From Pontimicrobium sp. IMCC45349 (GTDB lineage Bacteria > Bacteroidota > Bacteroidia > Flavobacteriales > Flavobacteriaceae): DNA of 64,000 nt. Numbering within the stretch: the first letter of the stretch is position 1; each line of letters opens with the position of its first letter. The notes below the pieces were generated by a model. The model did not search any database. It saw only the letters and a program-made list of their open reading frames with translations, and had not been told where the DNA came from. The position numbers and the translations under genes were made by a program. Below, one piece after another: positions 6,143-34,842 of the stretch. The DNA is taken from positions 2,804,001 through 2,868,000 of the forward strand of contig NZ_CP178208.1 in the NCBI RefSeq assembly GCF_047219225.1, written 5' to 3'.

Positions 6143-7260
6143 TAGCTATTCAGCATTACAGGCATTACTAGCATAGTTACATGTTCGCCTTCATCCAAAC
6201 CATCAACTGGTGTTAAGATTCCTGCTCTATTAGGTAAACTCATTTCTAGCATTACATCATCTGCACTAAGGTTTCCAAGCATTTCAGTTAAGAAACGTGA
6301 GTTGAATCCAATTTGCATATCGTCACCTTGGTAATCACAAGTTAAACGCTCGTCTGCTTTGTTACTGTAATCGATATCTTCAGCAGAAATATTTAATTCA
6401 GAACCAGCCATTTTTAAACGAATTTGGTGTGTTGTTTTATTAGAGAAAATAGATACACGCTTAACAGAGTTTAAAAACTGATTACGACCAATTGTTAACT
6501 TGTTAGGGTTTTCTTTTGGAATTACTGCTTCGTAGTTAGGATATTTCCCATCAATTAAACGACAAATTAATACAGAATTATCGAAAGAGAATTTTGCGTT
6601 AGAGTCGTTATACTCAATAGTTACCTCATCTTCCTTACCAGCTAAAATTCCTTTTAAAAGATTTAAAGGTTTTTTAGGCATAATAAACTCAGCAGTTTCA
6701 CTAGCAGCAACATCATCACGTGTATATTTTACAAGTTTATGAGCATCAGTAGCTACAAATGTTAAGTTTTCAGTAGAGAATTGGAAAAACACACCACTCA
6801 TAACTGGTCTTAAATCGTCATTTCCAGCAGCGAAAATAGTTTTAGAAATTGCAGTTGCTAAAATATCTGAAGCGATTGTTGTAGCACTTGGATTTTCCAA
6901 AGCTACAGCCTTAGGGAATTCTTCACCATTTGCGTATGCTAATGCATATTTACCATGGTTAGAGCTAATCTCTACTGTATTATTGTCTTCAATAATAAAG
7001 GTTAAAGGTTGCTCAGGAAACGTTTTAAGCGTATCTAATAACAATTTAGCCGGAATAGCCACACTGCCTTCACTATCACTTTCTACTTCAAGTGTAGAAG
7101 ACATAGTCGTCTCTAAATCACTTGCAGAAACTGTAAGCTGAGAATGGTCTAATTCAAATAAAAAATTGTCTAATATTGGTAACGTGTTTGAGTTATTAAT
7201 AACACCTCCAAGCACTTGAAGTTGCTTTAACAAATAACTACTTGATACAATAAATTTCAT
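6142..7260 (-). CDS. dnaN: DNA polymerase III beta subunit (sliding clamp)
   Basis: 372 aa. The N-terminus MKFIVSSSYLLKQLQVLGGVI...TLPILDNFLFEL is the canonical DnaN start, and the length and three-domain layout are typical. Confidence 0.9.
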   Translation of the reverse strand: MKFIVSSSYLLKQLQVLGGVINNSNTLPILDNFLFELDHSQLTVSASDLETTMSSTLEVESDSEGSVAIPAKLLLDTLKTFPEQPLTFIIEDNNTVEISSNHGKYALAYANGEEFPKAVALENPSATTIASDILATAISKTIFAAGNDDLRPVMSGVFFQFSTENLTFVATDAHKLVKYTRDDVAASETAEFIMPKKPLNLLKGILAGKEDEVTIEYNDSNAKFSFDNSVLICRLIDGKYPNYEAVIPKENPNKLTIGRNQFLNSVKRVSIFSNKTTHQIRLKMAGSELNISAEDIDYSNKADERLTCDYQGDDMQIGFNSRFLTEMLGNLSADDVMLEMSLPNRAGILTPVDGLDEGEHVTMLVMPVMLNS

Positions 7261-7346
7261 CTATATAAATGTATTTATGTTCTAAATAATGATTATCTAC
7301 AAATATATCTTTTTGAGGCTTAATTATGAAAGAAACTTATTAACAT

Positions 7347-17912: not shown

Positions 17913-18944
17913 ATGAAAAAATATTTAGAAACAATACTACACGTTTTAATTTGGGGAATTTCCTATGTGTTGATCTTAAATTTCATAAACACTATTTCCG
18001 ATTTTAGAAAAGATGAAGGTCCATTTTGGCTTGCCATACTATTTGGAATGTTTATGAACCAAATTTTATTTTATACTACGGCTTTTTATATCGTTCCAAA
18101 GTTTTTACGATTAAAAAAAATAGCACTTCTAGTTATCTCTTTAATAGGTGTTTTTGTATTTATAAATTTATTGGAAAGCATTATAGATTACTATTGGTTG
18201 GTTGGATTTTTTTCAAGTGAGAGTGAATCTTTTGTAACCTATTTGAGTTATAATTCTATCAGTAGCTTTTTTATACTTTTATTAGGTTTGTCATATGCTT
18301 TAATTAAGTATTGGTTTCAAAATGAAAAATTAAAAAGAACCTTATATGAAGAGAAGTTAACTACAGAAATGACTTTTCTTAAGACTCAAATTAATCCTCA
18401 TTTTTTGTTTAATGTACTTAATAGTTTTTATGCTAAGGCATTAAAAAATGATGTGCCAGACTTGGCAGATGGTATATCTAAATTAGCAGATTTAATGCGT
18501 TATATGGTGTATGAAATTAATGAAGATAGCATTGCCTTAGAAAAAGAAATCCATCATCTTAAAAAGTTTATTCAGGTGTATCAGTTACGTATTGCTGAAG
18601 ATGACGATGTGTTTATTAATTTTACTGTTAAAGGAACTGTTGAGAACGTGCAAATTAGTCCTATGTTGCTTATTCCTTTTGTAGAAAATGCCATTAAACA
18701 TGGAATTGATCCTAAAACTAAATCTGTTATAAACATAACTTTGGAGGTTATAGAAAACAGCTTGGTATATAAAGTAACCAATACAGTTCATAAAAACGCG
18801 TATGATTTGAAGGATACTTCTTCTGGGTTTGGTTTAGATAATTTAAAGAAGAGACTAACTATTTTATATCCCAATTTACATACTATAGAAACCAAAGAAG
18901 AAGATGGATATTTCGTTTCTTTACTTAAATTGCAAATAGAATAA
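17913..18944 (+). CDS. LytS-type membrane sensor histidine kinase (5TM sensor + His_kinase domain)
   Basis: N-terminal multi-TM region, then H-box LKTQINPHFLFNVLNSFYAKAL and an HATPase-like C-terminus (GFGLDNLKKRL). Confidence 0.8.
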   Translation: MKKYLETILHVLIWGISYVLILNFINTISDFRKDEGPFWLAILFGMFMNQILFYTTAFYIVPKFLRLKKIALLVISLIGVFVFINLLESIIDYYWLVGFFSSESESFVTYLSYNSISSFFILLLGLSYALIKYWFQNEKLKRTLYEEKLTTEMTFLKTQINPHFLFNVLNSFYAKALKNDVPDLADGISKLADLMRYMVYEINEDSIALEKEIHHLKKFIQVYQLRIAEDDDVFINFTVKGTVENVQISPMLLIPFVENAIKHGIDPKTKSVINITLEVIENSLVYKVTNTVHKNAYDLKDTSSGFGLDNLKKRLTILYPNLHTIETKEEDGYFVSLLKLQIE

Positions 18945-18951
18945 CTGTGTT

Positions 18952-19662
18952 ATGAATTATATAATAATTGATGATGAACCCGCTGCTATAGATGTTCTTG
19001 AGTTTCATCTTAGTAAGATTCCGTTTATGGAGTTAAAAGCAACATTCAGAGATCCTTTGGATGCTCTTGAGTATCTTCAAAAACACACTGTTGATCTTCT
19101 TTTTTTGGATATTAATATGCCAAAGATATCTGGAATTAAATTTCCTAAATTTTTAGAAAAAGCACCACTTATTATTTTTACAACAGCTTATTCAGAGTAT
19201 GCTTTAGAAAGTTATGAGCTTAAAGCGATAGATTATTTATTAAAACCAATTGGTTTTGAGCGGTTATTACAAGCAGTAATGAAAGCAAAAGAGGCTTTGA
19301 ATCAAAGTGCAGAAGGCGTAAGGTCAAACGCTGAAACTTCTCAAGAAAGACTTGAACAGACTGTTTTTATAAAAAGTGGTTCTGAGTTTCACCAACTATC
19401 CATTCAAGATATAAAATACATTGAAAGCGATGGTAATTATGTAACCTTCCATACAACCAAGCGTTCTATTTTAGCGCGTTATAAGATATCTGAAGTTATA
19501 GAGCTGTTACCTAAGCAGTTTTTTGCAAGAATTCATCGTTCCTTTATTGTAGCTATTAAACATATAGAAATAGTTAAAAAACATTGTGTTATTATAGATG
19601 AAATTGAAATTCCTATTAGTAGCAATTATAGAGATGATTTTTTAGCTATTATTCGCACATAA
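18952..19662 (+). CDS. LytTR-family response regulator
   Basis: REC domain (IIIDDEP..., LLFLDINMP) plus a C-terminal LytTR domain (FFARIHRSFIVAIKHI). It starts 8 nt after the kinase gene. Confidence 0.85.
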   Translation: MNYIIIDDEPAAIDVLEFHLSKIPFMELKATFRDPLDALEYLQKHTVDLLFLDINMPKISGIKFPKFLEKAPLIIFTTAYSEYALESYELKAIDYLLKPIGFERLLQAVMKAKEALNQSAEGVRSNAETSQERLEQTVFIKSGSEFHQLSIQDIKYIESDGNYVTFHTTKRSILARYKISEVIELLPKQFFARIHRSFIVAIKHIEIVKKHCVIIDEIEIPISSNYRDDFLAIIRT

Positions 19663-19686
19663 AGTTGTCTAGGAAAGACCTGTTAT

Positions 19687-20631
19687 TTATTGTAGCTTGT
19701 ACATAAGTTTAATATGTCTTTCTATTTCTGCATCAAAATCATTATAGAGTAATTTGTATTTATCTCCCAATACTGTTTTAACTTTTAGAATAGTATCATT
19801 AGGCTTTTTATTATTCTTATAATCAGATTGCACTTGTTTCCAGACATGAGATAACAAGTCTAAATCTCTAATTACTGAATTTACATTTGTAGTGTTACCA
19901 TGTCCTGTTAAAACATGTGTTGGATTTAATTTAACGATAAATTTAAGAGTATCTAGTAAATTAGGAATATTGCCATGATCAGTAATTACAGGCATCCAGT
20001 TAGAGCTTAATACGTCACCTCCAAAAATGATTTTTTGTTTAGGTAACCACATTAAAATATCACCTGGAGAATGCGCGTCATTAGAAAAGATAAGTTCTAC
20101 TTCTAAGTTGCCAAAATTGCGTTTTTCGTTTTTGCTAATTATTAAGTTTGGATAAGAAAGTTTTGTAGTACCAATAGTTCCATTGGTGACACGTTTGTAA
20201 AATGCAACATCATCTTCTCCATATTTTTCCATGGTTTTGAAGGTTTTGTCACTAGCAATTATTTCAATAGCTGTATCTGCAAAAGCAGCATTACCTAGCC
20301 AATGGTCAGCATGACTATGCGAATTAATAATCCAACGTACAGGTTTATTAGTAATCGATTGAATTGTTTTTTTTATTTGGTTACCTATTGTTTGAGATGA
20401 ACCAGAATCAAATAACAATACACCATCATTAGTGATTACAAAATGTACATTAGAGTTCCAACCTTTATTTTCTGGAGTTGGTAATCCAAATGAAGGTGAA
20501 ATAATACTGTAAATATTGTTAGTAATCTGTTTGACTTCAAACTCTATGGTAGTAGTATTTGCATTTACTATGTTATTACCAAAGATGCTAATGAGGCAAA
20601 ATGAGATTATTATGGCCTTAATTTTTTTCAT
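19687..20631 (-). CDS. secreted metallo-beta-lactamase-fold hydrolase
   Basis: Signal peptide and the H-x-H-x-D-H zinc motif (NSHSHADHWLGN). Confidence 0.7.
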   Translation of the reverse strand: MKKIKAIIISFCLISIFGNNIVNANTTTIEFEVKQITNNIYSIISPSFGLPTPENKGWNSNVHFVITNDGVLLFDSGSSQTIGNQIKKTIQSITNKPVRWIINSHSHADHWLGNAAFADTAIEIIASDKTFKTMEKYGEDDVAFYKRVTNGTIGTTKLSYPNLIISKNEKRNFGNLEVELIFSNDAHSPGDILMWLPKQKIIFGGDVLSSNWMPVITDHGNIPNLLDTLKFIVKLNPTHVLTGHGNTTNVNSVIRDLDLLSHVWKQVQSDYKNNKKPNDTILKVKTVLGDKYKLLYNDFDAEIERHIKLMYKLQ

Positions 20632-21013: not shown

Positions 21014-22405
21014 TTATTTCAGATATATTTCGTCTTTCACATAACTTGCGTTTAGCCAAAAACAATGTTTTGTATATTCAGTCAAACCTGTTAATTTATC
21101 TACTACAGGTAATTCATAAGTATCTGCTGCATTTCTCGCGTGTGGTCTAACGTGACTAATTCTGTTTTCAGTTTTCTTTGGGAAATAAGTTTTTCTCACA
21201 CCTTTTTCAGTTACTTCTTTTACGATTTCTCCACTTTTAACTGTCTTTACCATTTCTTGCCAAACATTTTTGGCTTCAACAATATCAGAGTAGGGCATAT
21301 TCCAAAATTTCACTTTTCTTAAAATCAAATTTTCTCCCTCAAATTGATAAAAGACGAAGAAAAATTTACTTTCCAAAATGTTCTTAAAATCTGAATCTTC
21401 CCAATCTGTTTCAACAAGTTCTAGATATTCAAATGTAGGAAACGAAATATCTTCTTTTGGTAAATCATTTTCTTTAAGTCGAATAGTTTTGACTTGAATA
21501 TCTGCTTTTTCAAATTCCTCTATCTTTTGACCGAGTTCAAGTCCAAGAATAGCATTTGTAAGATTTGCAAAATAACTTTTAGCTTTCTGGTTTAATTCTA
21601 AACCCAATTCTTGTTCAATTTGTTCAGCGGATTTTCCATAAAATGGGTGGAATTTTAGAATTACTATTTCTTCTATTGAACGTACTTTTTCTAAAATTTC
21701 TGGCTGCTCAATTATTTTTCCATAAACAGCTGTTTCTTCTTGAGCAATATTTGCGATTATATGATTGACATAACCTTGTTTTAAAGAATATGCTCTTTGT
21801 TTTGCTTTTTCATTATTAAATGGCTGGTCTCTATATGATTTTAGAGCTGTTGAGCCTTTTGTACAAGCTCCAAGATAAAATGTATCTCCTTCTGATAATT
21901 CGTGAGCTTTTCCGTCTTTTATTTTTTGATTGATAAATTCCCAATCTTGCTTAATAATTTTTAAATCTTCGTTCGGATATTGCCAACCGTCAACTAACTT
22001 TATTATGTAGTCAAGTAAATTTAAATCTCTGTCGTGTAGATAGAATACTAAAAGTAAATGGGCATTTTTCTTCCAAAATGAACTAGTTTCAAACTCTTCT
22101 TTGTGAACTTCTAAATAATTAATGATATTTAAAACAAGTCTTTCTTTTGAACGATATTCTCCATTTTTTAAAGTTTTTAATGGACTTGATTTTAGTTCAA
22201 TTCCTGCTTCTTTAAAATCAGGTTCTGCATCAGAATTTGGTTCGTAACCAAAATAGAATTTTTCTAAAATCTGACCGAAATTTCCCTTTCCTTTATAACC
22301 GTGTTTTTCAATTTCAACTCCACAAGCTTGTCTTAAAGTTTGGTTTTTAAGTTGTTTTGCAAATTCTATTATTGAATCTGCCGAAGTTATATCAAGCATA
22401 TTCAA
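21014..22405 (-). CDS. type II restriction endonuclease, MutH/Sau3AI family
   Basis: The N-terminal block GKGNFGQILEKFYFGYEPNSDAEPDFKEAGIELKSSPL matches the MutH/Sau3AI catalytic signature D-x6-E-x-K. 463 aa. It overlaps the upstream C5-methyltransferase gene by 14 nt. Confidence 0.7.
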   Translation of the reverse strand: MNMLDITSADSIIEFAKQLKNQTLRQACGVEIEKHGYKGKGNFGQILEKFYFGYEPNSDAEPDFKEAGIELKSSPLKTLKNGEYRSKERLVLNIINYLEVHKEEFETSSFWKKNAHLLLVFYLHDRDLNLLDYIIKLVDGWQYPNEDLKIIKQDWEFINQKIKDGKAHELSEGDTFYLGACTKGSTALKSYRDQPFNNEKAKQRAYSLKQGYVNHIIANIAQEETAVYGKIIEQPEILEKVRSIEEIVILKFHPFYGKSAEQIEQELGLELNQKAKSYFANLTNAILGLELGQKIEEFEKADIQVKTIRLKENDLPKEDISFPTFEYLELVETDWEDSDFKNILESKFFFVFYQFEGENLILRKVKFWNMPYSDIVEAKNVWQEMVKTVKSGEIVKEVTEKGVRKTYFPKKTENRISHVRPHARNAADTYELPVVDKLTGLTEYTKHCFWLNASYVKDEIYLK

Positions 22406-23639
22406 ATTGGTTTATCTGTTTATAAAGTTCTACTCCAATTTTTTCAATTATGCCTACAACTAATGCATTTCCCATAAAAAAGGCTCGTTTAGTGTCTGTA
22501 ATTCCTTCCAATTTGGTGTGATTATCTGGAAACATATTTAATCTCTCTAATTCAATTGGTGTCAATCTTCTTAAACCTCTATCAGAAACAACTACGTGTT
22601 TAAACCTTGAAGGTGATTTTCCACCTTCTCCTGTTATTATTGTTCTAGAAGCATTATCTAGAGCGTCAGGATAAATCATTCCGCCTTCACTATAATTGTA
22701 TTCAAAACCTTCTTTTGTTTTTCTTTTTTCTTTTTTAGCACCTTTTAAATATTCCCATTTTGGTTTGTCGTTTTCATCAATGAAAAATTCAGGTGTTACT
22801 TCTCCGTTTTGTAGAACATCTGCTAAAACAGTTTTTTGCCCATCGTAATTTGGCTCTGTTTTAGTTGTGAAAACTTTATCATTAATTAATAAGCCTGTAT
22901 TTTGAAAAGGCGATAGCTTTCCATTCTTATTGAAATTGTCTGTTATTTCTACTAAATCTCCTTTTAATTCAACTTCTTGAATTGCATTTGTTTTTGCAAC
23001 AGGAAAAGCATTTGCTATTGTTCCTTCTTCTATTAACCAATTTGTTTTATTAGATTTTTTAAGTCTTTTGTAAACGTCAGTTGATTTGTGATAACCTATA
23101 AAGAAAACTCTACGTCTTCTTTGTGGCATTCCATATTCAGCTGCATTTATAACTCGCCATTCTACTGCATAACCTAAATCATTTAAACTTTGTAACATAA
23201 CAGCAAAATCACGACCTCTTTGTTTTGCTGGGGATTTTAAAAGTCTATCAACATTTTCTAAAAAAAGATATTTCGGCTTGTTCTTTTTGTTCTCTAAAAT
23301 TTTATGAATTGACCACCAAAGAACACCTTTTTTACCTTTTAAACCTTTTGAATTATGCAATGTAGTTGCAACAGAATAATCTTGACAAGGAAAACCTCCA
23401 ACTAATAAATCGTGATCTGGAATTTCTTCTACATTTCTTGTTACTACTTCGTTTATATCTTCGTTAGAATGATTTTCATTTCCAAAACGAGCTTCATAAA
23501 CCATTGATGCGTGTTGCGTTTTGGTTGACGGTTCCCATTGATTACTCCAAACAACTTCGTAATTGCTTTTTTCAAGTCCAAGACGAAATCCTCCAACTCC
23601 TGCAAATAATTCTGCAACTCTCATTTTCTTATTTTCCAT
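22392..23639 (-). CDS. DNA (cytosine-5)-methyltransferase
   Basis: Motif I (ELFAGVGGFRLGL), motif IV (GGFPCQDYS) and motif VI (ENV) of C5 methyltransferases. 415 aa. Confidence 0.85.
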   Translation of the reverse strand: MENKKMRVAELFAGVGGFRLGLEKSNYEVVWSNQWEPSTKTQHASMVYEARFGNENHSNEDINEVVTRNVEEIPDHDLLVGGFPCQDYSVATTLHNSKGLKGKKGVLWWSIHKILENKKNKPKYLFLENVDRLLKSPAKQRGRDFAVMLQSLNDLGYAVEWRVINAAEYGMPQRRRRVFFIGYHKSTDVYKRLKKSNKTNWLIEEGTIANAFPVAKTNAIQEVELKGDLVEITDNFNKNGKLSPFQNTGLLINDKVFTTKTEPNYDGQKTVLADVLQNGEVTPEFFIDENDKPKWEYLKGAKKEKRKTKEGFEYNYSEGGMIYPDALDNASRTIITGEGGKSPSRFKHVVVSDRGLRRLTPIELERLNMFPDNHTKLEGITDTKRAFFMGNALVVGIIEKIGVELYKQINQFEYA

Positions 23640-23937
23640 TTTCTTGAGCTTTATAATAGTTAATTTTTTCTTCTGCTACTTTTAATATTTCGGAAGTCGA
23701 TTCCGTGTATTTTAGTTCGTCTGCAATTTTTTCCGAATACCAATTTATGATAAGTTCGTTTTCGGGAAGTTCGTAAAACTTTGCAAGTCTTACGATTTGT
23801 TCCATTGTCGGTTTTCTTTCGTTTTTCTCGAATTTGCTAATCAGAGATTGATCAATATCTACTTCAGCTGCAACTTTTCGAAGTATCAATTCTTTTTCCT
23901 CTCTGGCACATTTTAAAGTGTCGCCTAATGTTTTCAT
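23629..23937 (-). CDS. XRE-family HTH transcriptional regulator, probable controller (C) protein of the R-M operon
   Basis: A 102-aa helix-turn-helix protein (LRKVAAEVDIDQSLISKFEKNERKPTMEQIVRLAKFY). It is the first gene of the C-M-R operon and overlaps the methyltransferase start by 11 nt. Confidence 0.65.
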   Translation of the reverse strand: MKTLGDTLKCAREEKELILRKVAAEVDIDQSLISKFEKNERKPTMEQIVRLAKFYELPENELIINWYSEKIADELKYTESTSEILKVAEEKINYYKAQENGK

Positions 23938-24229: not shown

Positions 24230-24961
24230 TTATAGTTTTATTGTGATTTTTTCGCCTTGTTCAGTCATAGGTTGAATAGAGTCTATATTGCTCCATTTTT
24301 TATTAGCACTAGGTATTTGTTCAGGATATAAGTGGTATACACCAAGCATTTTTGAATCAATTTCAATTTCTTGTTCTTTTGCATTTAGTAAAATCCAATA
24401 AGGCACAAAAGCCCAGTCCATATTTTTAATTTTTCCAATTGTTTCTGGATTGGTTGTATCTCCAGATAAATAAATTCTTTTTCCGTGCCAAGTTATGAGG
24501 TAAGAATAATGCCTAAAAGAAATTCCAAAAACTTTATGTGTAGTTTTAAATGCTTTAATTTCAAAGTTATCTAAAGAGTTGTTTAGGTTTTCTAATTCAG
24601 ATATGTTTGATACACCATATTTTTGTCCACCTTTTTCTTTTAAAATTTTGTTTAGGTGTTTTTTAGAATAATGGTCGGAATGTTTATGTGTAAAAATAAA
24701 GATTGAATTGTGCTTAATACTATCAAGTTCTGTACTATCAAATTCCATGTAACCATGCGCTCCAGATTTATATGGAAAATCTGTGTATATATGAGTTGTA
24801 CCATCAGTTATATATAAGCCACAGTTTCCCAAGAATTTGATATTAATTTCTTTGGATTGACTATGTGTAAAGCTAGAAACGAAAATTAAAATTATAGTTG
24901 TAAAATGTGTTTTTCCTGTCTTGAAAATAGGCATAATTTGAGTGTTTGAATTATTTATCAA
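24230..24961 (-). CDS. secreted metallo-beta-lactamase-fold hydrolase
   Basis: Signal-like N-terminus and an H-x-H-x-D-H motif (FTHKHSDHYS). Confidence 0.65.
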   Translation of the reverse strand: MINNSNTQIMPIFKTGKTHFTTIILIFVSSFTHSQSKEINIKFLGNCGLYITDGTTHIYTDFPYKSGAHGYMEFDSTELDSIKHNSIFIFTHKHSDHYSKKHLNKILKEKGGQKYGVSNISELENLNNSLDNFEIKAFKTTHKVFGISFRHYSYLITWHGKRIYLSGDTTNPETIGKIKNMDWAFVPYWILLNAKEQEIEIDSKMLGVYHLYPEQIPSANKKWSNIDSIQPMTEQGEKITIKL

Positions 24962-25039
24962 ATTAAAGCACTAATCAATTGTGGTTTGAATAAAAGTGAC
25001 GAAACAAGCTTAATTTTGACAAATGAATACGCTAAATAA

Positions 25040-25843
25040 TCACGCTTCATTTAAACTGCTTTTAATTTTAGTATAGTATGTTTTTGAAAGTGGGATAGTG
25101 TTTTCAAAATCTTTGAAACATATTTTCGCATTTTGAGAATTGCCCTTAACTTCTTTAACGTTTTCCATGTTTAAAAGATAAGAGCGATGACACTTTACTA
25201 AAAAAGGTAATTGTTGATTTGTTTTTAAAAGCGTTTGTCTAAAGGTTTTAGATGTTACAGTATTGTTATCACTTACAAAAAAAATATCAATATAGTTTTC
25301 TACTGCTTTTATATAGAGTAGGTCCTTTCTATTAAGCTTTAATGTTTCATTCTTATTTTCACCAGTTATAATTACTGTGTTTTTTGGAAGTGGGATAATT
25401 AGTTCCCCAAACTTATTGCGTAAAAAGACTACTAAAGGTGAAAAAATTGGAATAAATACTAAAACGATGTGTTGTAGGTAAAGGAAATATGTTTTTATAG
25501 AATAGCTTTCACCATTTATAAAGCGATGATTATATAGATAGATTATAGTTCCAGAAATTGTAAAAAAGATTATTGTAGAAATAATTTCGTTACCGACAGT
25601 CCAAATTTTATTAGAACTATTATATAAAATGTTCTCTAAACTACTTTGTATAAAAAAGGTTGAAAAAAAGAGTATCCCAAAACCTGATAAAATCAAGTTT
25701 TTATAGTTAGATTCATAGTTGTTGGTATCAAAAGGCTGAAGAAATATTATAATAAACGCCAATATGCACCCTAAAATAAAACCAACTAATAATTTATCTT
25801 TTAAGGATGCTATAAAAGGTATTTGTTTATTAAGAAAAGTCAA
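25040..25843 (-). CDS. membrane-anchored LytTR DNA-binding domain protein (no receiver domain)
   Basis: Four or more N-terminal hydrophobic helices followed by a LytTR-type C-terminus (FLVKCHRSYLLNMENVKEVKG). 267 aa. Confidence 0.65.
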   Translation of the reverse strand: MTFLNKQIPFIASLKDKLLVGFILGCILAFIIIFLQPFDTNNYESNYKNLILSGFGILFFSTFFIQSSLENILYNSSNKIWTVGNEIISTIIFFTISGTIIYLYNHRFINGESYSIKTYFLYLQHIVLVFIPIFSPLVVFLRNKFGELIIPLPKNTVIITGENKNETLKLNRKDLLYIKAVENYIDIFFVSDNNTVTSKTFRQTLLKTNQQLPFLVKCHRSYLLNMENVKEVKGNSQNAKICFKDFENTIPLSKTYYTKIKSSLNEA

Positions 25844-25874: not shown

Positions 25875-28800
25875 CTAAGACTTTTTATTTAAACCACTTT
25901 TAAGCACATCTTGAATGCCTTCTAAATGCTCACTAAACTGCATCATTTGTGCTAAAATTTGCGTCATGCCATTTTGATTACCAAAGCCTTTTAATTTGTT
26001 GTTTTTTATAAAGGTTGCTTTAATGGATTCCCAACGTTCTAACTCGTTAGCATCTATAGTCTCTGCAAGCTCTTTATACTTCAATAAATTGGCTTCGGCT
26101 GCACTAGTTAATGTTTGCGATTCGTTTTCGTAATGCGATAATAAAAGTATTTGTAGTTCTTTGTTATTCATAATTGGAACCACCTTAGCTACCAATTTAT
26201 TCATATCACGATACGACCCTTGTAACTTAAAGGATGGCTCAATACGATAATTATCGTCCATAGCAGCCGATTTAATATAGGTTTCATTAACCTTTAATAC
26301 TGTGTTACGTATGGTTACCACTTTATCTAAAACGGCTAAATAATCTTCAACTTCTTGTTTGGTATGGTTGCCTTTTAGTTCTAAATTTTCACGATTTCCA
26401 GACTCTACAGTTTCAATTAGTTGGTAAATATCCTCAAAGTATTTACTGCTTAATTGGTGTAAAATAGGGTTGGAGGTTAGTGCATTTTCAATTAAACTTA
26501 ATTTAAATAAATCGGCTGTATCTCCAATAATATCACCTAAATTATAGATGTCTGCACGATTGGCAAGCATGTCTGGAATTTGAAACTTTTCACCACTTTC
26601 GGTATAAGGATTTCCAGCCATAATCACACAAAATTTCTTACTACGTAAATCGTAAGTTTTTGGTTTACCATTATACACACCTTCTATTTTACGTGTACCA
26701 TCGGCAAGCGAAATAAATTTTTGTAAAAACTCAGGATTACAGTGTTGTATATCGTCTAAGTACAACATAACATTGTTACCCATTTCAAATGCAAGATTAA
26801 GCTTATTAAGTTCTTCTCTTGCTGCCGAATTGTTTGCAGTTAAAGGGTCTACAGAAGTAACTTCATGACCAATGGCTGGACCGTTTATTTTCATAAAGAT
26901 TAAGCCTAATCGGTTAGCCATATATTCCATTAAGGTTGTTTTACCATAACCAGGAGGCGAAATTAATAGAAGCATTCCCATTCTATCAGTACGTTTGTTA
27001 TCACCAACGCTACCTAATTGTTTGGCTAAATTATCACCAAATAATGGTAAGTATACCTTATCAATAAGTTTGTTTCTAACAAAAGACGATAGAACTCTAG
27101 GTTTAAACTCTTCTAGTTTTAAACTGTCTTTAAGTGTTTCTGTTACCGAATGTTTAGCAGTTCTAAAAGCATTATAAGCAGGAACTTCTACAGTTTGAAA
27201 TGTTTGTAGTTGCTGAGTGAAATCATGATAGTTAAAGTTAAAACTACCTTCTTGAATGCACTCATGTGTTCCTTTTAAATTTTGAATAACTGCGTCTGGA
27301 TTTACTTGAATTATATTAGAAGTAGCTTCGCTTTTAAAAAGTATTAAGGCTGCAATTTCATATATATAATCCGTTTTTTGTGGTGCATGTAGTTTGATAA
27401 ATGAACTTACCCATTGTACAACTAACTCAACAGCTGCTTGCGAAATTACCTGTTCGTTTAGCGCTGTTTTTACAGAATTATTAAAAGTGATTAAAGCGTT
27501 TTTGTTTTCAAGCGTTTTTGTGAATTGATCGTGTAGCTCTTGAGCTGTTTTGCTAATACAAAAAGTGTTGTCGCTTTGTAATTCTTCAAACAAATAGGAA
27601 GCTGTTTCAAGCTCTAGTGTTTGATTACTTTTAATATAGTGTTTAGATAAGCTGTCGTAAACGGTAGACTGCTTTAACTCATGACTTAAAGCCTCTAAAA
27701 TTACTTTATATTCATTGCTCTCTGGGAATGTAGAAAGTACTTCTCCAGAAGCTTTTATTTTTTGATTCCAATGCGCTTTATTTTCTGAATTCAAATTATA
27801 CCAGAAAAACTGACCAAATGCACGTACAAGTGGTGTATAGCGAAGTAGCCCTAAATTATGATGCTTGTTAATTAAAACTTGTAAAATTTGAGCTGCATCC
27901 TCATCATGAACACCTTTTATATAACCTTCGGAATAGTTTTTACTACTTTCATTTTTTATAAGTTGAAGTAATGCAGTTTCGTCTAGCGAATTTAAATTTT
28001 GAGATGCGTTTGTAAATAGTTTATAAGCTAAGTATGCAGCTCTATAAATTGTTTTATTTTCGGAAACTAATTCTTGATTCCAATATTTTTGAGAGGATAA
28101 TAGTGTTGTGTCCTCAATAGTTTGATAAAAATCGGTTCCAGTTAAATGGTATTTTAAAGTATCATCTTTAAAAACAATAGTAAGATCTAGAGGTTGTTTA
28201 TTAACTCCAAATTTGTGTTTTCCAAGACGAATAATAGTTTCGCCATCTTCATATAAATCTTGTGTGTCTTTTAGTTTTCTTATGGCATCTTCTTTAGCAA
28301 CTTTAAGACCAGTTTCAATTGCTTCTGCTTTTCCAACATCCTCTAAATCTTTTAAATTCTCGATAATGTCTCGCAGTTTATTAATCATCAAGTCAGAAGC
28401 GAAATAGCCATTAATTTCAGTAGTAGTTTTAAAGTTAAGTGCTTTTTTAGCAACACCTTTTAAAATTCTATTAGCTGCAGTTTCAAGGCTTATAGCTTTT
28501 TTATTTCTAGCTTCAATAAGACCATTTTTACGCGCTTCGAATGCGTTGTAAACTTCCTCACGTTTTTCAATAATAAGAGAAATAAAATCTTCAAAATCGG
28601 CAAAGCGACCTTCTAAATCTTCTAATTGTATAGAAACTTTGTTTAGAAGTTCATCTGTTTTTTCAGGTGTATTAGCAATGTCTAAATAGTTGATAATACT
28701 TTGGTCAACTAACTTAAGTTGTGCTGCAAATTCGGCAGAAGCTTCTTTTTCTCCTAGCGATTTTAGTTTGTTTTTTAAGCCTGCTTTTAACTGATTGATA

Positions 28801-30773
28801 GTAGAAAATATCAATGAGATATTATCGATAATTTTAGTAGCATGCGATGCATCTTCAATATCTAAATTTGAGACAATATCGATAAGCATTTCTAAATCTG
28901 CAGCGATTTGATTTACTTCTGCTTCTAAAGCCTTAGCAGCTACTACTTTTTTAATGTCTTGTAGTGCTTTTTCTTTGTCTGAGACACGTTGATGATAGGG
29001 TAGAAGTGCTTTCTCATCTAATAAAAACTGCACACAACGTTGTGAAATCTTATCATTTTGAATAACAATTTCTTCCTCTAGTGTGGAAATAAAAGTAGTG
29101 TCAACATAGCGAATATCGTTAAGACCAATAACTTCGCCTCTTAATGTTCTTAGCTGTGATAATACCAATACAAAATCTTCAATACTTTTAAAAGAACTGC
29201 TTTTAATTTTACCAAAAATATGACTCGCTTTGTCTTGTGTTTCTTTAGTAATATTTGCAGCTGTTTTACGAAGTTGTACCACCTTTTCAAACTCATCAAT
29301 TGCAGAGTTTGCTGCAGCATTGATTTCAAAAAGTGGTTCGTTGATTAAGAATGTATCTGGTTCTGTAATCCAATAATAGCTACTAAGAATATCGTTAGAG
29401 GCCTTTGCAATGTCATCATATAAACCATCAAAACTATCCTCTTTGTTTAGTAATGTTACTAAAGCTTGAGATTCTGCCATGGCTTTTACAATGTCTTTAT
29501 TCCCTATTTTATATAATAAAGTATCTGTATGTTCCGAAGGAATGGCTTCACCTTTAACAAATGGTGTTTGCCAAATTTGTATGACGTGGTGTTTAGTTTG
29601 TTCGTCTTCAGTTTTAAAGTAACATAGTTCACCATCTTTAAGAATGGTGTAACCGTTACATATAATAGGTGTTTTTACTTGTTGCTCAATAACATTGTAG
29701 GACATAAGTATGTAGAGTCCTTTTGTGCTTTCGTAAAAAACATATAAGTAATCCTCTCCATTAGGAGAGCTCACCGTTTTTTTAAACTTTACATTAGTAA
29801 TACCATTGTCAAAAAGTTTAAAATCACCAGATTGTAAATAATAACCACCGGCAAAAATAATACCTTGGTCATCTGGTAATAACAAACAGGCATCACCTAT
29901 ACTATCTATTTTTTTTACCTCCTGAATTTTATGGTTGTATACAAAATAGCGAGGTGCTTCTTGAAAAGGTTTAATTTCTAGAGCAATAAGGTTGCCTAAA
30001 TCTGCATAGCGATATTGACCATCATCTAATGTTTGGTCAGCGTGTTCAACAAGCTCACTATAAATACCTTTACCATCATCTGTGTTATCTTCTATTTTTA
30101 TAGTTAAGTCGCCTCCAATAGTTTCTACAAATACTTTATCTAATATAGAAATATGTGGATGCTCACCATAAACGTGTTGGTCTCTACTAGGCTCTACCCA
30201 ATTAAAAGCGTGTTGATTTGGGAATTTAAATTCATGTTCGCTTCGATTATCTATGTATTTAAGTGAACCATCATTTATTAACCATTTAAATGTTTTTACG
30301 TCAGTAACACTATCACTTAATTGAAAAACCATGTGTAGATAGTTTCCAACGATAGCAAACTTTGAAAAAACCGTATTTCTATAATATTTGTACAGATTGG
30401 TAAAATCGTCAATAAAAATAGCATCGTTCAATAAGTCCAACGATTGATTGACAAAGTGGTTGTCTTCGTAGGTATAGATGCTGAATACATCGTCTAAAGT
30501 AATGTCTGTACGAAGTCCAAAATGTACGTTATATCCAAATAGGCAAATATCACCAATAGTAACAATATCACGTGCTATACAGTTGTTTTCTGTATTAATA
30601 CGATTATTAGCAATTAGTTTAGTTTCAACATTACCAAAAACGGTTTTACGCGCTTCATTTAGTTGCGCTAATCGTGATAGAAGTTCACTTTTTTGTTTTT
30701 GTAGGCGTCCTTGAATAATTTCATAAGTACCACCATCAAGTTGTATGTTATTTGCGTCGTTGGGTTGTTCCAT
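25875..30773 (-). CDS. giant (1632 aa) protein with a C-terminal MoxR/AAA_5-type ATPase domain and a long uncharacterised helical N-terminal region
   Basis: Walker A LLISPPGYGKTTL and Walker B VMLYLDDIQH, followed by the AAA_5-typical ...FCVIMAGNPYTE (ATxNP-like sensor-1) and ANRADIY (arginine-finger region). About 1150 aa upstream of this have no recognisable motif. Confidence 0.6.
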   Translation of the reverse strand: MEQPNDANNIQLDGGTYEIIQGRLQKQKSELLSRLAQLNEARKTVFGNVETKLIANNRINTENNCIARDIVTIGDICLFGYNVHFGLRTDITLDDVFSIYTYEDNHFVNQSLDLLNDAIFIDDFTNLYKYYRNTVFSKFAIVGNYLHMVFQLSDSVTDVKTFKWLINDGSLKYIDNRSEHEFKFPNQHAFNWVEPSRDQHVYGEHPHISILDKVFVETIGGDLTIKIEDNTDDGKGIYSELVEHADQTLDDGQYRYADLGNLIALEIKPFQEAPRYFVYNHKIQEVKKIDSIGDACLLLPDDQGIIFAGGYYLQSGDFKLFDNGITNVKFKKTVSSPNGEDYLYVFYESTKGLYILMSYNVIEQQVKTPIICNGYTILKDGELCYFKTEDEQTKHHVIQIWQTPFVKGEAIPSEHTDTLLYKIGNKDIVKAMAESQALVTLLNKEDSFDGLYDDIAKASNDILSSYYWITEPDTFLINEPLFEINAAANSAIDEFEKVVQLRKTAANITKETQDKASHIFGKIKSSSFKSIEDFVLVLSQLRTLRGEVIGLNDIRYVDTTFISTLEEEIVIQNDKISQRCVQFLLDEKALLPYHQRVSDKEKALQDIKKVVAAKALEAEVNQIAADLEMLIDIVSNLDIEDASHATKIIDNISLIFSTINQLKAGLKNKLKSLGEKEASAEFAAQLKLVDQSIINYLDIANTPEKTDELLNKVSIQLEDLEGRFADFEDFISLIIEKREEVYNAFEARKNGLIEARNKKAISLETAANRILKGVAKKALNFKTTTEINGYFASDLMINKLRDIIENLKDLEDVGKAEAIETGLKVAKEDAIRKLKDTQDLYEDGETIIRLGKHKFGVNKQPLDLTIVFKDDTLKYHLTGTDFYQTIEDTTLLSSQKYWNQELVSENKTIYRAAYLAYKLFTNASQNLNSLDETALLQLIKNESSKNYSEGYIKGVHDEDAAQILQVLINKHHNLGLLRYTPLVRAFGQFFWYNLNSENKAHWNQKIKASGEVLSTFPESNEYKVILEALSHELKQSTVYDSLSKHYIKSNQTLELETASYLFEELQSDNTFCISKTAQELHDQFTKTLENKNALITFNNSVKTALNEQVISQAAVELVVQWVSSFIKLHAPQKTDYIYEIAALILFKSEATSNIIQVNPDAVIQNLKGTHECIQEGSFNFNYHDFTQQLQTFQTVEVPAYNAFRTAKHSVTETLKDSLKLEEFKPRVLSSFVRNKLIDKVYLPLFGDNLAKQLGSVGDNKRTDRMGMLLLISPPGYGKTTLMEYMANRLGLIFMKINGPAIGHEVTSVDPLTANNSAAREELNKLNLAFEMGNNVMLYLDDIQHCNPEFLQKFISLADGTRKIEGVYNGKPKTYDLRSKKFCVIMAGNPYTESGEKFQIPDMLANRADIYNLGDIIGDTADLFKLSLIENALTSNPILHQLSSKYFEDIYQLIETVESGNRENLELKGNHTKQEVEDYLAVLDKVVTIRNTVLKVNETYIKSAAMDDNYRIEPSFKLQGSYRDMNKLVAKVVPIMNNKELQILLLSHYENESQTLTSAAEANLLKYKELAETIDANELERWESIKATFIKNNKLKGFGNQNGMTQILAQMMQFSEHLEGIQDVLKSGLNKKS

Positions 30774-30967
30774 TCTTAAATTGTAATTGGATTTAAAACG
30801 TATAAATCTTAAAAGATGTGTTATTTAAACACTTAATCATTATGAAAATGAGAGGAACGAACGATAATAAATCTTAATTAGATTTTTTATTATTCTATAT
30901 CTGTGTAACAGCAATTCCTTTTAATAAATTAGATTAAATACACTCGCTTATAAGCGAGTGTATGATA

Positions 30968-33034
30968 TTATCCTAACTTCTTATCTAATAAACCTAAGCC
31001 ACTCGCAAGATTTGATAGGTTTTCAAATAAGTTTAGTTCTCCAGAATCTGTTGTTTTAGATTTTAAGTGTAATAACAAATTAGCAACAGTTACGTTTTTA
31101 ATGTCTTCGGAAGAAATGCCATATTTAGTAGCAAATTCTTTAATCTTTTCTAATAAGTTTCCTTTTACATCATCGCTACCTAAAATAGCTTCTTTAACTT
31201 CGGTAATATTATCAGAATGATTAATTAAACGATCTACACCTTTAGACTTCGTAATTTGTCCAATAATTTGATCGAAGAACATTGTTTCTCCACCAACTAT
31301 GTCAATGTTAGCAGCTCTTAATGCCTCACCAATTACTTGTGCTTGTGCATCTGCAATATCTTTTTGGATATTGATTTCTGCTAAGTCAACTTGTAATTCT
31401 TTATTTAAGCGTAGTTTAAACTCTTCGTGCTCTTTACCAACACCATCTAATTTCTTCATAGCATTAGCTTTTTCTTCAATTCCTGAAGCTTCAGCTAAGG
31501 CTTGTTCTTTAATTACTTCGGCTTGTGCTACACCTTCTTCTTTAATCGCTTCTGCTTTAGCTAAGATACCAGCAGCTTCCGCTTTAGCTTTCTTTTCTAT
31601 AATAGTTGCTTCAACCAATCCTTGACGCTCATTAGCATCGGCTTTAGCATGCATTACTTGAGCTTCAGACATACCAATAGTAGCTTCTTCTTTAGCTTTA
31701 GCTTCTGCTAATGTTTTTCTAGCTTCTGCTTCTTTTTCACTAGCTTGTTTCTTAGCTTCTGCCTCAATATTAATTTCTTCTGCTTTTTGCTTAGATGCTT
31801 CTTTTTCAGCTTCAGCAGCTTTAATAGTTTTAATTAATGATTCTTGAGCATTCGCTTCAGCAATCGTAATTTTTACTTGTTTTTCACGCTCAGCAGTTTT
31901 GAAAGCTTCAATATCCTTCATGTTTTCTTGCTCTTCAACCACACCTTTTTCTAACATTACACGATCGCGAATTACATCTTGGATACTTTTCTTTTCTACT
32001 TCAACAACCTTTTCTTTTTCAATTTGAGCAAGCGTAACAATACGTTCTCTTTCGGTAGCTTCTAACATTCTGTCTTTTTCTACACGTTCAGTTTCAACAG
32101 CATCTGTACGTTGCTTATTTTTTGCAGCGACAATAATTTGACGCTCCATATTTTCTTCAGCAACTTTTACTTTTTCTTCGGTAGAAATTCTAGCAGATTC
32201 AGATTTTAAACGTTCTTCTTCAGCAACTTTAATAGTTTCTGCCTCTTCACGCGCTTTAATATTAGCGATTTCACGCTTTTGTTGTTCTTCTTTTTCAGCT
32301 AATTGTTTGTCTAACTCTAAAATAGCTTCGCGTGCTTCAACATCTTGCTTACGAATTACTTTTTCCTCATCGCGCTTAATAAGGTTAGCTTTCATGTTTT
32401 GCTCAGCAGTAAGTTCTGTAATTTTTTTAATTCCTTCTGCATCTAAGATGTTGTCAGGCTTTAAAAACTGTACTGAGGTTTGCTCCAAGTAATCAATAGC
32501 ACAATCTTCTAAGGTATAACCATTAAGATCAGTTCCAATAATATCTACAATTTCATCACGGAATTCGCGACGCGCTTCGTATAATTCTACGAACTGGAAT
32601 TTTTTACCTACTGTTTTTAATGCTTCAGAGAATTTAGCTTCAAAAAGCTCTTCTAAAGTTGAAATATCTGAAGCTCTTTCGCAACCTACTGTTTGTGCTA
32701 CTTTTTTAATAAACTCTACTTCATTATTTACACGTACAAAGAAGGCTACTTTAATATCGGCACGCATGTTATCTTTACATAACAATCCGTTTTCTCCAAT
32801 ACGTTCTATTTGAATTTTCTTTACAGAAATATCCATGATTTCTACTTTATGAAATACAGGTACCACGTATAATCCTTTATCTGTAGCAACTTTAGTACCC
32901 TTAAATCCTGTACGTACTAAGGCTTCACCTTGAGGTACTTTTTTATAGAATAGTGCAATAATTGCAAAATAAATGATGATTAGAAAGAGGATAAGCCCAA
33001 CGCCTATACCAATAATTTGTGTGATGTTTTCCAT
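30968..33034 (-). CDS. flotillin-like SPFH/band-7 domain protein (YqiK-like) with a long coiled-coil/Ala-Glu-Lys-rich region
   Basis: N-terminal TM helix, an SPFH core (VRTGFKGTKVATDKGLYVVPVFHKVEIMDISVKKIQIER) and an extended EA/KA-rich repeat region. 688 aa. Confidence 0.75.
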   Translation of the reverse strand: MENITQIIGIGVGLILFLIIIYFAIIALFYKKVPQGEALVRTGFKGTKVATDKGLYVVPVFHKVEIMDISVKKIQIERIGENGLLCKDNMRADIKVAFFVRVNNEVEFIKKVAQTVGCERASDISTLEELFEAKFSEALKTVGKKFQFVELYEARREFRDEIVDIIGTDLNGYTLEDCAIDYLEQTSVQFLKPDNILDAEGIKKITELTAEQNMKANLIKRDEEKVIRKQDVEAREAILELDKQLAEKEEQQKREIANIKAREEAETIKVAEEERLKSESARISTEEKVKVAEENMERQIIVAAKNKQRTDAVETERVEKDRMLEATERERIVTLAQIEKEKVVEVEKKSIQDVIRDRVMLEKGVVEEQENMKDIEAFKTAEREKQVKITIAEANAQESLIKTIKAAEAEKEASKQKAEEINIEAEAKKQASEKEAEARKTLAEAKAKEEATIGMSEAQVMHAKADANERQGLVEATIIEKKAKAEAAGILAKAEAIKEEGVAQAEVIKEQALAEASGIEEKANAMKKLDGVGKEHEEFKLRLNKELQVDLAEINIQKDIADAQAQVIGEALRAANIDIVGGETMFFDQIIGQITKSKGVDRLINHSDNITEVKEAILGSDDVKGNLLEKIKEFATKYGISSEDIKNVTVANLLLHLKSKTTDSGELNLFENLSNLASGLGLLDKKLG

Positions 33035-33069
33035 GTTTATTATTTGGTTTTGTTTAAGATTTAATATGT

Positions 33070-33819
33070 TTAAAATTTGATGTCTTCGATGTTAACGATG
33101 CGCTCATTAGGATCTTCGGCTGGAAGTACCCAATAAAAGTTTTTATCGTCCGATTGTTTGATGACTACAATTTCTTGTTTGTAATCAATCGTATTTCCAT
33201 TATGAGATTTCGCATAAATTGAAATTGGGTTGTCGTCTACTATTATCTCAGCAGATCCCATTTTGTTTTTAGAGATTTTTGAGAGCATCAATCCCTTTCT
33301 GCCTATAAGATTAATTGGCGCATCACCATCTGGATTTAAGTTTTTGAAAAAACCTTTAAATGGCGATGTAAACAGTTTGGTTATTACTAAAGAAGGTACA
33401 ATACCTGCTAATAAAAGCGTATAACCATAATTTGTGTTATAAGACGATGTTAGTGTGGTTGCTATTACTGTGCATAGCCACCAAATAAAAATCCAAGATG
33501 TAAAAGTGAACATAAAAGGAAGTCCTACAAAGTTGAAGTAAACTAGTACCTGTTGCCACCATGTTAGTTTTTTTCTTGGGTCTTTTATAACATCTTCTTC
33601 ATTTATTTCAGCATTTGCAAGATCTGTAAAAGATGCTGTATCAAGATTAGCATCGACATCTACGTCAACATCAGCATCTATATCTACATCAACGTCTATA
33701 TCTAGGTCGAAATCTATACCAGAAATCATATTGAAAATCCAATAGAGAATTAAAATTATAACCAGAATACTTAGGGTTATGTTTACTTGAGAAAAGGCAA
33801 TGTCAATAACGTTATCCAA
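33070..33819 (-). CDS. NfeD-like membrane protein (YqiJ-type partner of flotillin) with an acidic (D-I/V-D) repeat
   Basis: Multi-TM middle region and a C-terminal OB-fold-like NfeD segment (GSAEIIVDDNPISIYAKSH...). It lies directly upstream of the flotillin gene. It carries a DIDVDVDIDADVDVDVDAN low-complexity tract. Confidence 0.6.
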   Translation of the reverse strand: MDNVIDIAFSQVNITLSILVIILILYWIFNMISGIDFDLDIDVDVDIDADVDVDVDANLDTASFTDLANAEINEEDVIKDPRKKLTWWQQVLVYFNFVGLPFMFTFTSWIFIWWLCTVIATTLTSSYNTNYGYTLLLAGIVPSLVITKLFTSPFKGFFKNLNPDGDAPINLIGRKGLMLSKISKNKMGSAEIIVDDNPISIYAKSHNGNTIDYKQEIVVIKQSDDKNFYWVLPAEDPNERIVNIEDIKF

Positions 33820-34020: not shown

Positions 34021-34165
34021 ATTTGGAAGTTCGTTTAACGTGTTCGTGTATGGTTTGTGCGGAATATTCCGTGAGGAATATTCCGAGTGTTCTGTTGTTT
34101 CTTTAAAGTTAGGAAATTTAATTGAAGTTCATGTGATAGCATGAACTATACACGTTGTTAGGCAT
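34021..34165. repeat. B-type cassette-flanking element, copy B3 (3' flank of the Zn-ribbon/membrane cassette)
   Basis: It starts GGAAGTTCGTTTAACG. It contains twin palindromes GGAATATTCC x2 (34062-34084) and a perfect 8-bp hairpin AGTTCATG-TGATAG-CATGAACT (34125-34146). The inner end tatacacgttGTTAGGCAT overlaps the stop of the 34158 gene and is the inverted partner of ATGCCTAA at 34874. Confidence 0.75.
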
Positions 34166-34529
34166 TGGCTTCTTTATCACTTGATTCAAACCGAGATTCG
34201 ATTAATTTCATTTGATTTAATATATCAATAGGTTTTGAGGTTTCAGACTTATGTTTTTCCTGAGAAAAATAAAGAGATAGTAGTCCACCAACCAGAAATA
34301 TTCCAAATAGAGCAATCACTAAGTATTGATATCGAATGTCCTGAAATTCCGTACCCAATAACGTTATTAGGCAAGGAACACAAGCACCAAGAAATAAAAA
34401 TCCTATTTTATTAAATATATTAACATTTATATCAATTTCTCCTAGTTTATCTTTTATGAATTTCCATTCACTTATAGCAATTGGATAAGCTTTGCCTTTT
34501 TGATGAGACATTAATTCATATTCTTGAGA
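34158..34529 (-). CDS. small two-TM membrane protein (second gene of the Zn-ribbon module; start taken at the internal Met that avoids overlap)
   Basis: The ORF-track version (34158..34598) would overlap the upstream gene by 47 nt. The Met at 34529 (MSDNGNN...) removes the overlap. Two hydrophobic helices (IGFLFLGACVPCLITLLG, LVIALFGIFLVGGLLSLYF). The last codons (..EANA*) are encoded by the B3 repeat. Confidence 0.5.
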   Translation of the reverse strand, partial: SQEYELMSHQKGKAYPIAISEWKFIKDKLGEIDINVNIFNKIGFLFLGACVPCLITLLGTEFQDIRYQYLVIALFGIFLVGGLLSLYFSQEKHKSETSKPIDILNQMKLIESRFESSDKEANA

Positions 34530-34551
34530 TACCGAAAAGTTGTTTCCATTA

Positions 34552-34842
34552 TCACTCATCTTTCTTAGTTTTTTTAGGTTCAACTTTTGGTTTTTCAATA
34601 GCTTGCGAAACTAATGCGTTAACTAAAACAGTATTTCCACAATTATTACAGTTTACGGGAATTATTGGATAGATTGGTCCTCCTCCAATGACAATATTTC
34701 CTCCCTGAAATTGTCTTAATTCATAAACAGTATCGTTAACAGTCCAACTGTTAGAATTACACATTGGACAAGCTCTATTTCCCCATTTCTCATTTAAGTG
34801 TTTTAATAGCTTATCTAAATCCGGTTTGTTGTCTTCTGACAT
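34552..34842 (-). CDS. small Cys4 zinc-ribbon protein
   Basis: 96 aa with CPMC (aa 25-28) and CNNC (aa 65-68) pairs and a Lys-rich C-terminal tail. It is the first gene downstream of the A3 element. Confidence 0.55.
   Translation of the reverse strand: MSEDNKPDLDKLLKHLNEKWGNRACPMCNSNSWTVNDTVYELRQFQGGNIVIGGGPIYPIIPVNCNNCGNTVLVNALVSQAIEKPKVEPKKTKKDE

Follow-up and report, generated by a model that had tools for sequence, protein, structure and literature searches.

What does a soluble ATPase of more than 1,600 amino acids do beside a membrane scaffold, and is it tied to that scaffold or a chance neighbor? The question is raised by three co-oriented open reading frames (ORFs) at 25875-33819 on the minus strand of a 64,000-nucleotide (nt) window of the Flavobacteriaceae member Pontimicrobium sp. 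IMCC45349 (contig NZ_CP178208.1, positions 2,804,001 to 2,868,000); by window we mean this whole stretch of DNA. The ORFs encode, in the order of transcription, a small membrane protein, a flotillin and the giant ATPase. The locus is a typical member of a widespread three-gene module that has been described computationally. We somewhat favor (at a rough probability of 0.55) the reading that the ATPase forms a cytoplasmic ring that remodels the flotillin scaffold, or clients of that scaffold, under membrane stress, with high confidence in the identity and linkage of the components and modest confidence in the mechanism.

The ATPase ORF shares 100% identity with an NCBI protein of Pontimicrobium sp. 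IMCC45349, which marks it as a genuine, annotated gene rather than a chance frame. It matches Pfam DUF3686 (PF12458) over residues 30-467 (E 5.2e-181, profile positions 1-448 of 448) and DUF7902 (PF25472) over residues 588-671 (E 1.6e-25), and hydrophobicity analysis revealed no transmembrane segment. A word-indexed search recovered 5,964 homologs at E<=1e-5, and an exhaustive search with residues 1-1200 recovered 1,376 representatives of 50%-identity clusters at E<=1e-3. The cluster representatives are proteins of 1,600-1,900 amino acids that are colinear with the query over residues ~10-1200 (27-45% identity), and full-length alignment was also seen with ATPase homologs of this size. Thus, the whole architecture is conserved, not the ATPase module alone. 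The family has no NCBIfam model and no solved structure; PDB sequence searches (single sequence and profile) matched the P-loop region alone. No mention of DUF3686 or PF12458 was found in the literature searched.

We examined the domain architecture using two AlphaFold2 models built from a 78-sequence alignment (35-88% identity to the query; mean predicted local distance difference test score of 84 for each model). A first-pass annotation of the window, made from the sequence alone, had described ~1,150 amino acids of helical and coiled-coil sequence without a recognizable domain in front of the ATPase module. This did not hold, given the DUF3686 and DUF7902 matches and a modeled beta-rich domain near the N-terminus. 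In the PDB, Foldseek matched the beta-rich domain to propellers of the WD40 and prolyl-oligopeptidase types (DCAF1, E 1.4e-5, TMt 0.42), and from the strand count the predicted propeller probably has seven blades. The elongated region that follows it consists of spectrin-like helical bundles. Between this coiled-coil region and the ATPase module is a helical domain that carries a near-invariant motif, EGYxKGVHDxDA (residues 949-960; 27894-27929). Across the 78 sequences, Y951, H956, D957 and D959 are invariant and G954 and A960 are at least 90% conserved. Separate scans of the helical sub-regions, including the domain with this motif, yielded no significant Pfam match. Further helices follow the AAA+ core and its lid at the C-terminus of the models.

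Two Pfam families match residues 1268-1393 above their cut-offs, AAA_5 with 34.2 bits (cut-off 22) and AAA with 28.5 bits (cut-off 21.2). Profile matches in the PDB cover the P-loop region alone and point to p97 and RuvB. The nearest solved folds to the modeled module are the MoxR proteins CbbQ and NorQ, and it has a beta-hairpin before sensor 1. On the predicted fold we assign the module to the AAA_5/MoxR-like group, in agreement with the first-pass annotation, whose quoted motifs are all present in the translation (as SPPGYGKTT, VMLYLDDIQH, VIMAGNPYTE and ANRADIY). The catalytic set comprises Walker A (G1275-T1280), Walker B (D1340-D1341), sensor-1 N1388, the arginine finger R1406 and R1522, a probable sensor-2 residue, and all of these are invariant. 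Walker B is DD (26751-26756) rather than the usual DE, and DD occurs in every aligned member (in alignments of 18 and of 78 sequences). The ATPase is about five times the size of a canonical MoxR protein. As had been suspected, it also departs from normal MoxR proteins in its company, since no VWA partner occurs among the window neighbors or among the conserved neighbor clusters of the 83 related loci described below.

The protein at the start of the module has 249 amino acids, with three hydrophobic segments (3-40, 102-121 and 132-154), an acidic, D-rich linker and a C-terminal beta domain. A profile of 10 orthologs aligned with E. coli YqiJ (hhalign 92.9%, E 3.7e-7), and the orthologs have weak Pfam YqiJ_N matches that fall below the cut-off (E 1.2e-4 to 0.015). 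We rejected canonical NfeD (PF01957), as neither the window protein nor five orthologs matched it at E<=10. In the second protein, one N-terminal transmembrane segment (1-36) is accompanied by an SPFH domain and a long coiled coil, and the C-terminal region is conserved. Its N-terminal 231 amino acids, when scanned alone, match Band_7 over residues 31-176 (E 7.7e-16), whereas the full-length protein has no Pfam match even at E<=10. The match is apparently lost to filtering because of the long charged coiled coil, and this makes the protein a trap for automated annotation. The flotillin aligns with E. coli YqiK (BLASTP E 2e-46, 30% identity over 456 amino acids). It is 46-87% identical to its counterparts in five phyla, usually above the value for the ATPase, and column identity is 0.6-0.73 across the SPFH domain and coiled coil. 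By sequence, the scaffold pair is of the YqiJ-YqiK type. Thus, of the flotillin and NfeD pair named by the first-pass annotation, the SPFH assignment stands and NfeD gives way to a YqiJ-type protein.

To what extent does the ATPase belong with this pair? A pattern scan that covered each GTDB species with one genome yielded at least 587 related loci, from which we compared the best 80 (the best-scoring ones, not a random draw) and three more from close relatives, using tblastn with the window proteins and clustering of all ORFs. Upstream counts refer to the 67 loci for which 3.2 kb or more of sequence was available on the upstream side. These loci come from Bacteroidota, Planctomycetota, Verrucomicrobiota, Desulfobacterota and Clostridia, and in 65 of them a co-oriented flotillin gene immediately precedes the ATPase gene. 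A YqiJ-like gene is upstream of the flotillin gene in 65 of 67, the two being usually -4 to 50 nt apart. The same order occurs on megaplasmids, including pQBR103 of Pseudomonas fluorescens and others of Streptomyces and Deinococcus. In total, the flotillin-ATPase adjacency is kept in at least eight phyla. The two genes abut or overlap in Clostridia, Planctomycetota and Verrucomicrobiota (gap of -11 to 33 nt). The flanks of close relatives at 83-85% identity are entirely different, with the triad intact. ATPase identity tracks taxonomy, being 62-88% within Flavobacteriaceae, ~50% to other Bacteroidota and 44-50% to other phyla.

The first-pass annotation had named two findings that would count against it, loss of synteny with the flotillin pair in other genomes and membership of the giant protein in a well-characterized family. 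The pair, with its NfeD-like member, is conserved beside the ATPase across phyla and the family is not a well-characterized one, so its finding survives. It had also reported co-oriented genes separated by 195 nt; the orientation is confirmed and the spacer between flotillin and ATPase is 194 nt. Between flotillin and ATPase, Aquimarina, Flavivirga and a further close relative carry insertions of one to four small genes (6546-7970 in locus L002, 6479-6913 in L088 and 6584-6982 in L089), and the window has the 194-nt spacer alone. The small ORFs inserted in these relatives have no informative domain.

In Bacteroidota the module has a full form, in which a CesT/Tir-like gene and PspA precede the triad and a regulator with helix-turn-helix (HTH) and S24-peptidase-like parts lies divergently in front. 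The order HTH-S24, then CesT-PspA-YqiJ-flotillin-ATPase, was found in 33 of 42 Bacteroidota loci. On pQBR103, YjfI-PspA and polyamine-related genes lie upstream of the triad. PspA was not detected near the triad in any of the 24 loci from the four non-Bacteroidota phyla. A tblastn search of the 64-kb window with the Aquimarina proteins detected no PspA, CesT or HTH gene (best E 0.27), and because the CesT-PspA pair is missing, the window holds an abbreviated form.

The arrangement, which the first-pass annotation could not match to anything described, has in fact been published. Ravi et al. (2024; mSystems, PMC11237479, section 19 and supplementary table) report an operon of YqiJ/YuaF, Band-7/flotillin and a beta-propeller, coiled-coil and AAA ATPase, which is the same operon as here, sharing its three core genes, their order and the ATPase family. 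It is known with CesT/Tir-PspA and as "related abbreviated operons" without it, and the supplementary table gives the operon context for Dokdonia donghaensis (ANH61663.1; PMC11237479). Dokdonia homologs are 68% identical to the window ATPase. Compared to the published full form, the window is without CesT-PspA and the divergent cHTH and protease regulator. The authors propose chaperone-like membrane dynamics and place the ATPase among PspA-associated AAA+ chaperones (PMC11237479). Their description is purely comparative, and the AAA clade, the Pfam families and the intercistronic hairpin presented here are not in it. Thus, the locus itself is a member of an already described gene cluster and not a discovery, and the family is a worthwhile experimental target.

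The hairpin is a terminator-like stem-loop that starts 5 nt past the flotillin stop codon and has a minimum free energy of -18.6 kcal/mol (z -3.67; none of 200 shuffles was as stable). Of 62 related loci whose gap is 45 nt or longer, 47 have a comparable hairpin no more than 60 nt past the flotillin stop. In control regions, the same test was positive for 13 of 154 windows inside genes (~8%) and for 15 of 82 positions after the ATPase stop (18%). The sequences of the junction hairpins vary among genera. We infer that the hairpin may serve as an attenuator or as a stabilizer of the mRNA 3' end, giving a high scaffold-to-ATPase ratio, and it probably holds ATPase expression well under that of the scaffold.

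How could such a protein act on a flotillin? MoxR-class proteins are ring-shaped remodelers that act via an appended binding domain, and SPFH proteins form large oligomeric cages. By analogy with other MoxR-class proteins, the Pontimicrobium ATPase would assemble into a hexameric ring in the cytoplasm. Its propeller could be the binding head, replacing the VWA/MIDAS adaptor of CbbQO, NorQD or midasin, and the helical array could serve as a lever. ATP turnover would then assemble, open or dismantle the cytoplasm-facing flotillin scaffold, or extract its clients, as part of a membrane-stress and repair pathway that may also use PspA. A narrower version, which we put forward tentatively as possible, is that the ATPase is a dedicated homo-hexameric motor of flotillin microdomains and a MoxR-class relative of midasin, whose propeller would grip the flotillin cage or PspA and whose helical lever would open or dismantle the cage on demand. 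If this version were true, it would reveal an ATP-driven cycle of SPFH scaffold assembly and disassembly, comparable to that of Vps4 on ESCRT-III. More generally, an ATPase tied to flotillin in at least eight phyla, and often to PspA, offers a handle on how flotillin scaffolds assemble, open and are removed.

Several observations weigh against remodeling of the scaffold by the ATPase. YqiJK occurs without this ATPase in E. coli and many other bacteria, so flotillin can work in its absence. In two related loci (L057 and L060), no flotillin lies within 7-10 kb of the ATPase, and the loci compared are the best-scoring ones. The Walker B DD suggests that ATP hydrolysis may be slow or regulatory. 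In the window, a terminator-like hairpin parts flotillin from ATPase, and an operon is here predicted at most. Also, we found no experimental work on any member of the ATPase family in the literature.

The hairpin bears directly on whether the ATPase of this genome is transcribed alone, independent of the scaffold pair, with the adjacency an evolutionary leftover. Such independence would fit the 194-nt gap with an 11-bp terminator-like hairpin right after the flotillin stop, as well as the loss from the window of the PspA module present in most Bacteroidota loci. However, the hairpin is itself conserved at the junction and the gene order is kept regardless, the adjacency spans at least eight phyla despite unrelated flanks, and the pattern is typical of attenuated read-through in an operon with unequal subunit needs. 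We thus consider a leftover adjacency quite unlikely. Where the PspA module is present, a different target comes into view. ESCRT-III polymers of archaea and eukaryotes require an AAA+ ATPase, and the window ATPase might act mainly on PspA, the bacterial ESCRT-III homolog, in a Vps4-like disassembly or recycling, with flotillin as a membrane platform alone. CesT/Tir-PspA is co-oriented in the same cluster in the 33 of 42 Bacteroidota loci and PspA is also present on pQBR103; Ravi et al. (2024; PMC11237479) likewise group the ATPase with PspA-associated AAA+ chaperones. We judge PspA as main target to be doubtful, flotillin being adjacent in 65 of 67 loci and PspA missing from the window and from the 24 non-Bacteroidota loci.

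The shifting surroundings of the triad could instead suggest a system for phage defense or conflict, acting as a membrane-associated abortive-infection machine and moving between genomes; the first-pass annotation had listed defense among its possible roles. Flanks vary in close relatives, copies occur on megaplasmids, the HTH-S24 regulator of the Bacteroidota loci resembles phage-type repressors, and in the window a restriction-modification system lies ~2 kb away. The latter is missing from related loci, however, and ATPase identity tracks taxonomy. A search of PADLOC-DB v2 produced a 30-residue P-loop match to IetA (E 3.4e-4), a sub-threshold match to Mem_04 (E 0.008) and nothing for the partners. 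There were no copies in 50,697 phage records, and the cluster has no conserved nuclease, protease or toxin domain. We consider a role in defense very unlikely. Least probable is that the database name is correct and the ATPase acts in DNA repair, with its adjacency to flotillin meaningless. The Pfam text for DUF3686 reads "ATPase involved in DNA repair", the NCBI name is "DNA repair ATPase", and there are weak P-loop matches to RuvB. The likeness to RuvB extends over ~45 residues around Walker A and reaches 21 bits, compared with cut-offs of 282-299. We found no DNA-binding or nuclease domain in the ATPase and no literature on its Pfam family that could back the name, and no repair gene is conserved nearby, whereas flotillin is. 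The "DNA repair ATPase" annotation is widely propagated, without visible support and contradicted by the gene context.

Remodeling of the scaffold, the reading we prefer, can be set beside better known systems. The pair itself resembles E. coli YqiJ-YqiK and B. subtilis YuaF-FloT (YuaG), in which, as in the window, the gene for a membrane protein with a C-terminal beta domain precedes one for a flotillin with a transmembrane segment, SPFH domain and coiled coil. In E. coli, no ATPase gene follows yqiK (sibD/ibsD are found there), and the ATPase-linked flotillins are 46-87% identical to each other across phyla compared with 30% to YqiK. CbbQ-CbbO, NorQ-NorD and RavA-ViaA have ATPases of ~260-500 amino acids that work through a separate VWA/MIDAS protein, whereas the window ATPase has 1,230 residues of propeller and helical domains fused in front and the Walker B DD. 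Midasin/Rea1 and the dynein heavy chains, which have AAA_5 modules with long helical appendages, are also among the closest known systems. In FtsH-HflK/C, an AAA+ protease is enclosed by an SPFH cage at the inner membrane (PMC13086221, PMC10153343). The likeness is that of an AAA+ machine functionally coupled to an SPFH-family scaffold at the bacterial inner membrane. However, FtsH is a membrane-anchored protease of the classical AAA clade, and HflK/C face the periplasm, whereas the window ATPase is soluble, MoxR-class and without a protease domain.

Table 1. Coordinates of the features of the flotillin-ATPase locus and its neighbors in the 64,000-nt window.
Feature	Position	Strand	Basis or remarks
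YqiJ/YuaF-type (NfeD-like) membrane protein, 249 aa	33070..33819	minus	hhalign vs YqiJ
YqiK-type flotillin, 688 aa	30968..33034	minus	Band_7; BLASTP vs YqiK
Terminator-like stem-loop	30938..30963	minus	11-bp perfect stem, UAUA loop, U/A-rich tail
Giant soluble AAA+ ATPase, DUF3686/DUF7902 family, 1,632 aa	25875..30773	minus	Pfam matches; NCBI identity
Predicted beta-propeller, aa 52-402	29568..30620	minus	AlphaFold2, ~28 strands; helix aa 14-46 in front
Elongated helical region, aa 419-838	28260..29519	minus	Helices up to 58 residues; includes DUF7902
Small beta unit, aa 847-885, and helical domain, aa 911-1200	27174..28235	minus	AlphaFold2 model
AAA+ module with lid, aa ~1235-1530	26184..27071	minus	AlphaFold2, Pfam, conserved residues
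LytTR and metallo-beta-lactamase-fold (MBL) genes	24230-25843	minus	
Restriction-modification unit	21014-23937	minus	~300 nt downstream of MBL gene, ~2 kb from triad

On the 3' side of the ATPase gene, the same strand encodes a 267-amino-acid LytTR protein followed by a 243-amino-acid MBL-fold protein. The former has four hydrophobic segments and a LytTR domain, and the latter has a weak MBL-fold match (Pfam Lactamase_B_3, E 1.2e-5) and no segment above a Kyte-Doolittle 19-residue mean of 1.6. The earlier description of these proteins as a membrane-tethered LytTR protein and a secreted hydrolase is thus borne out except for secretion. We considered the two genes as components of the system and rejected them, since tblastn detected no counterparts in the 83 related loci and close relatives have other genes downstream. 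For these reasons they lie outside the unit, and the profiling of LytTR and MBL neighbors proposed by the first-pass annotation gave a negative outcome. Together with the adjacent restriction-modification system, they are unrelated neighbors of the triad.

The restriction-modification unit is compact and comprises an HTH controller-like protein (102 amino acids), a C-5 cytosine methyltransferase (415 amino acids) and a MutH/Sau3AI-like endonuclease (463 amino acids). Beyond it, a LytS-type histidine kinase and a LytTR response regulator are encoded on the plus strand (17913-19662), and after this pair is a second metallo-beta-lactamase-fold gene on the minus strand (19687-20631). The genes at 17913-20631 may have a functional tie to the LytTR and MBL genes next to the triad, rather than to the ATPase.

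Upstream of the triad, two small overlapping ORFs of 96 and 146 amino acids (34158-34842, minus strand) occupy the slot that CesT-PspA fills in most Bacteroidota. The shorter product has zinc-ribbon-like CxxC...CxxC motifs and in the longer there are two hydrophobic segments. Pfam and PADLOC gave no match for either product, and no counterpart of either turned up in the related loci. The 146-amino-acid ORF is separated from the YqiJ-like gene by a 338-nt gap that contains a palindrome at 34060-34085, CGGAATATTCC-(4 nt)-GGAATATTCCG, with 11-bp arms, which could be a terminator of the upstream pair or an operator.

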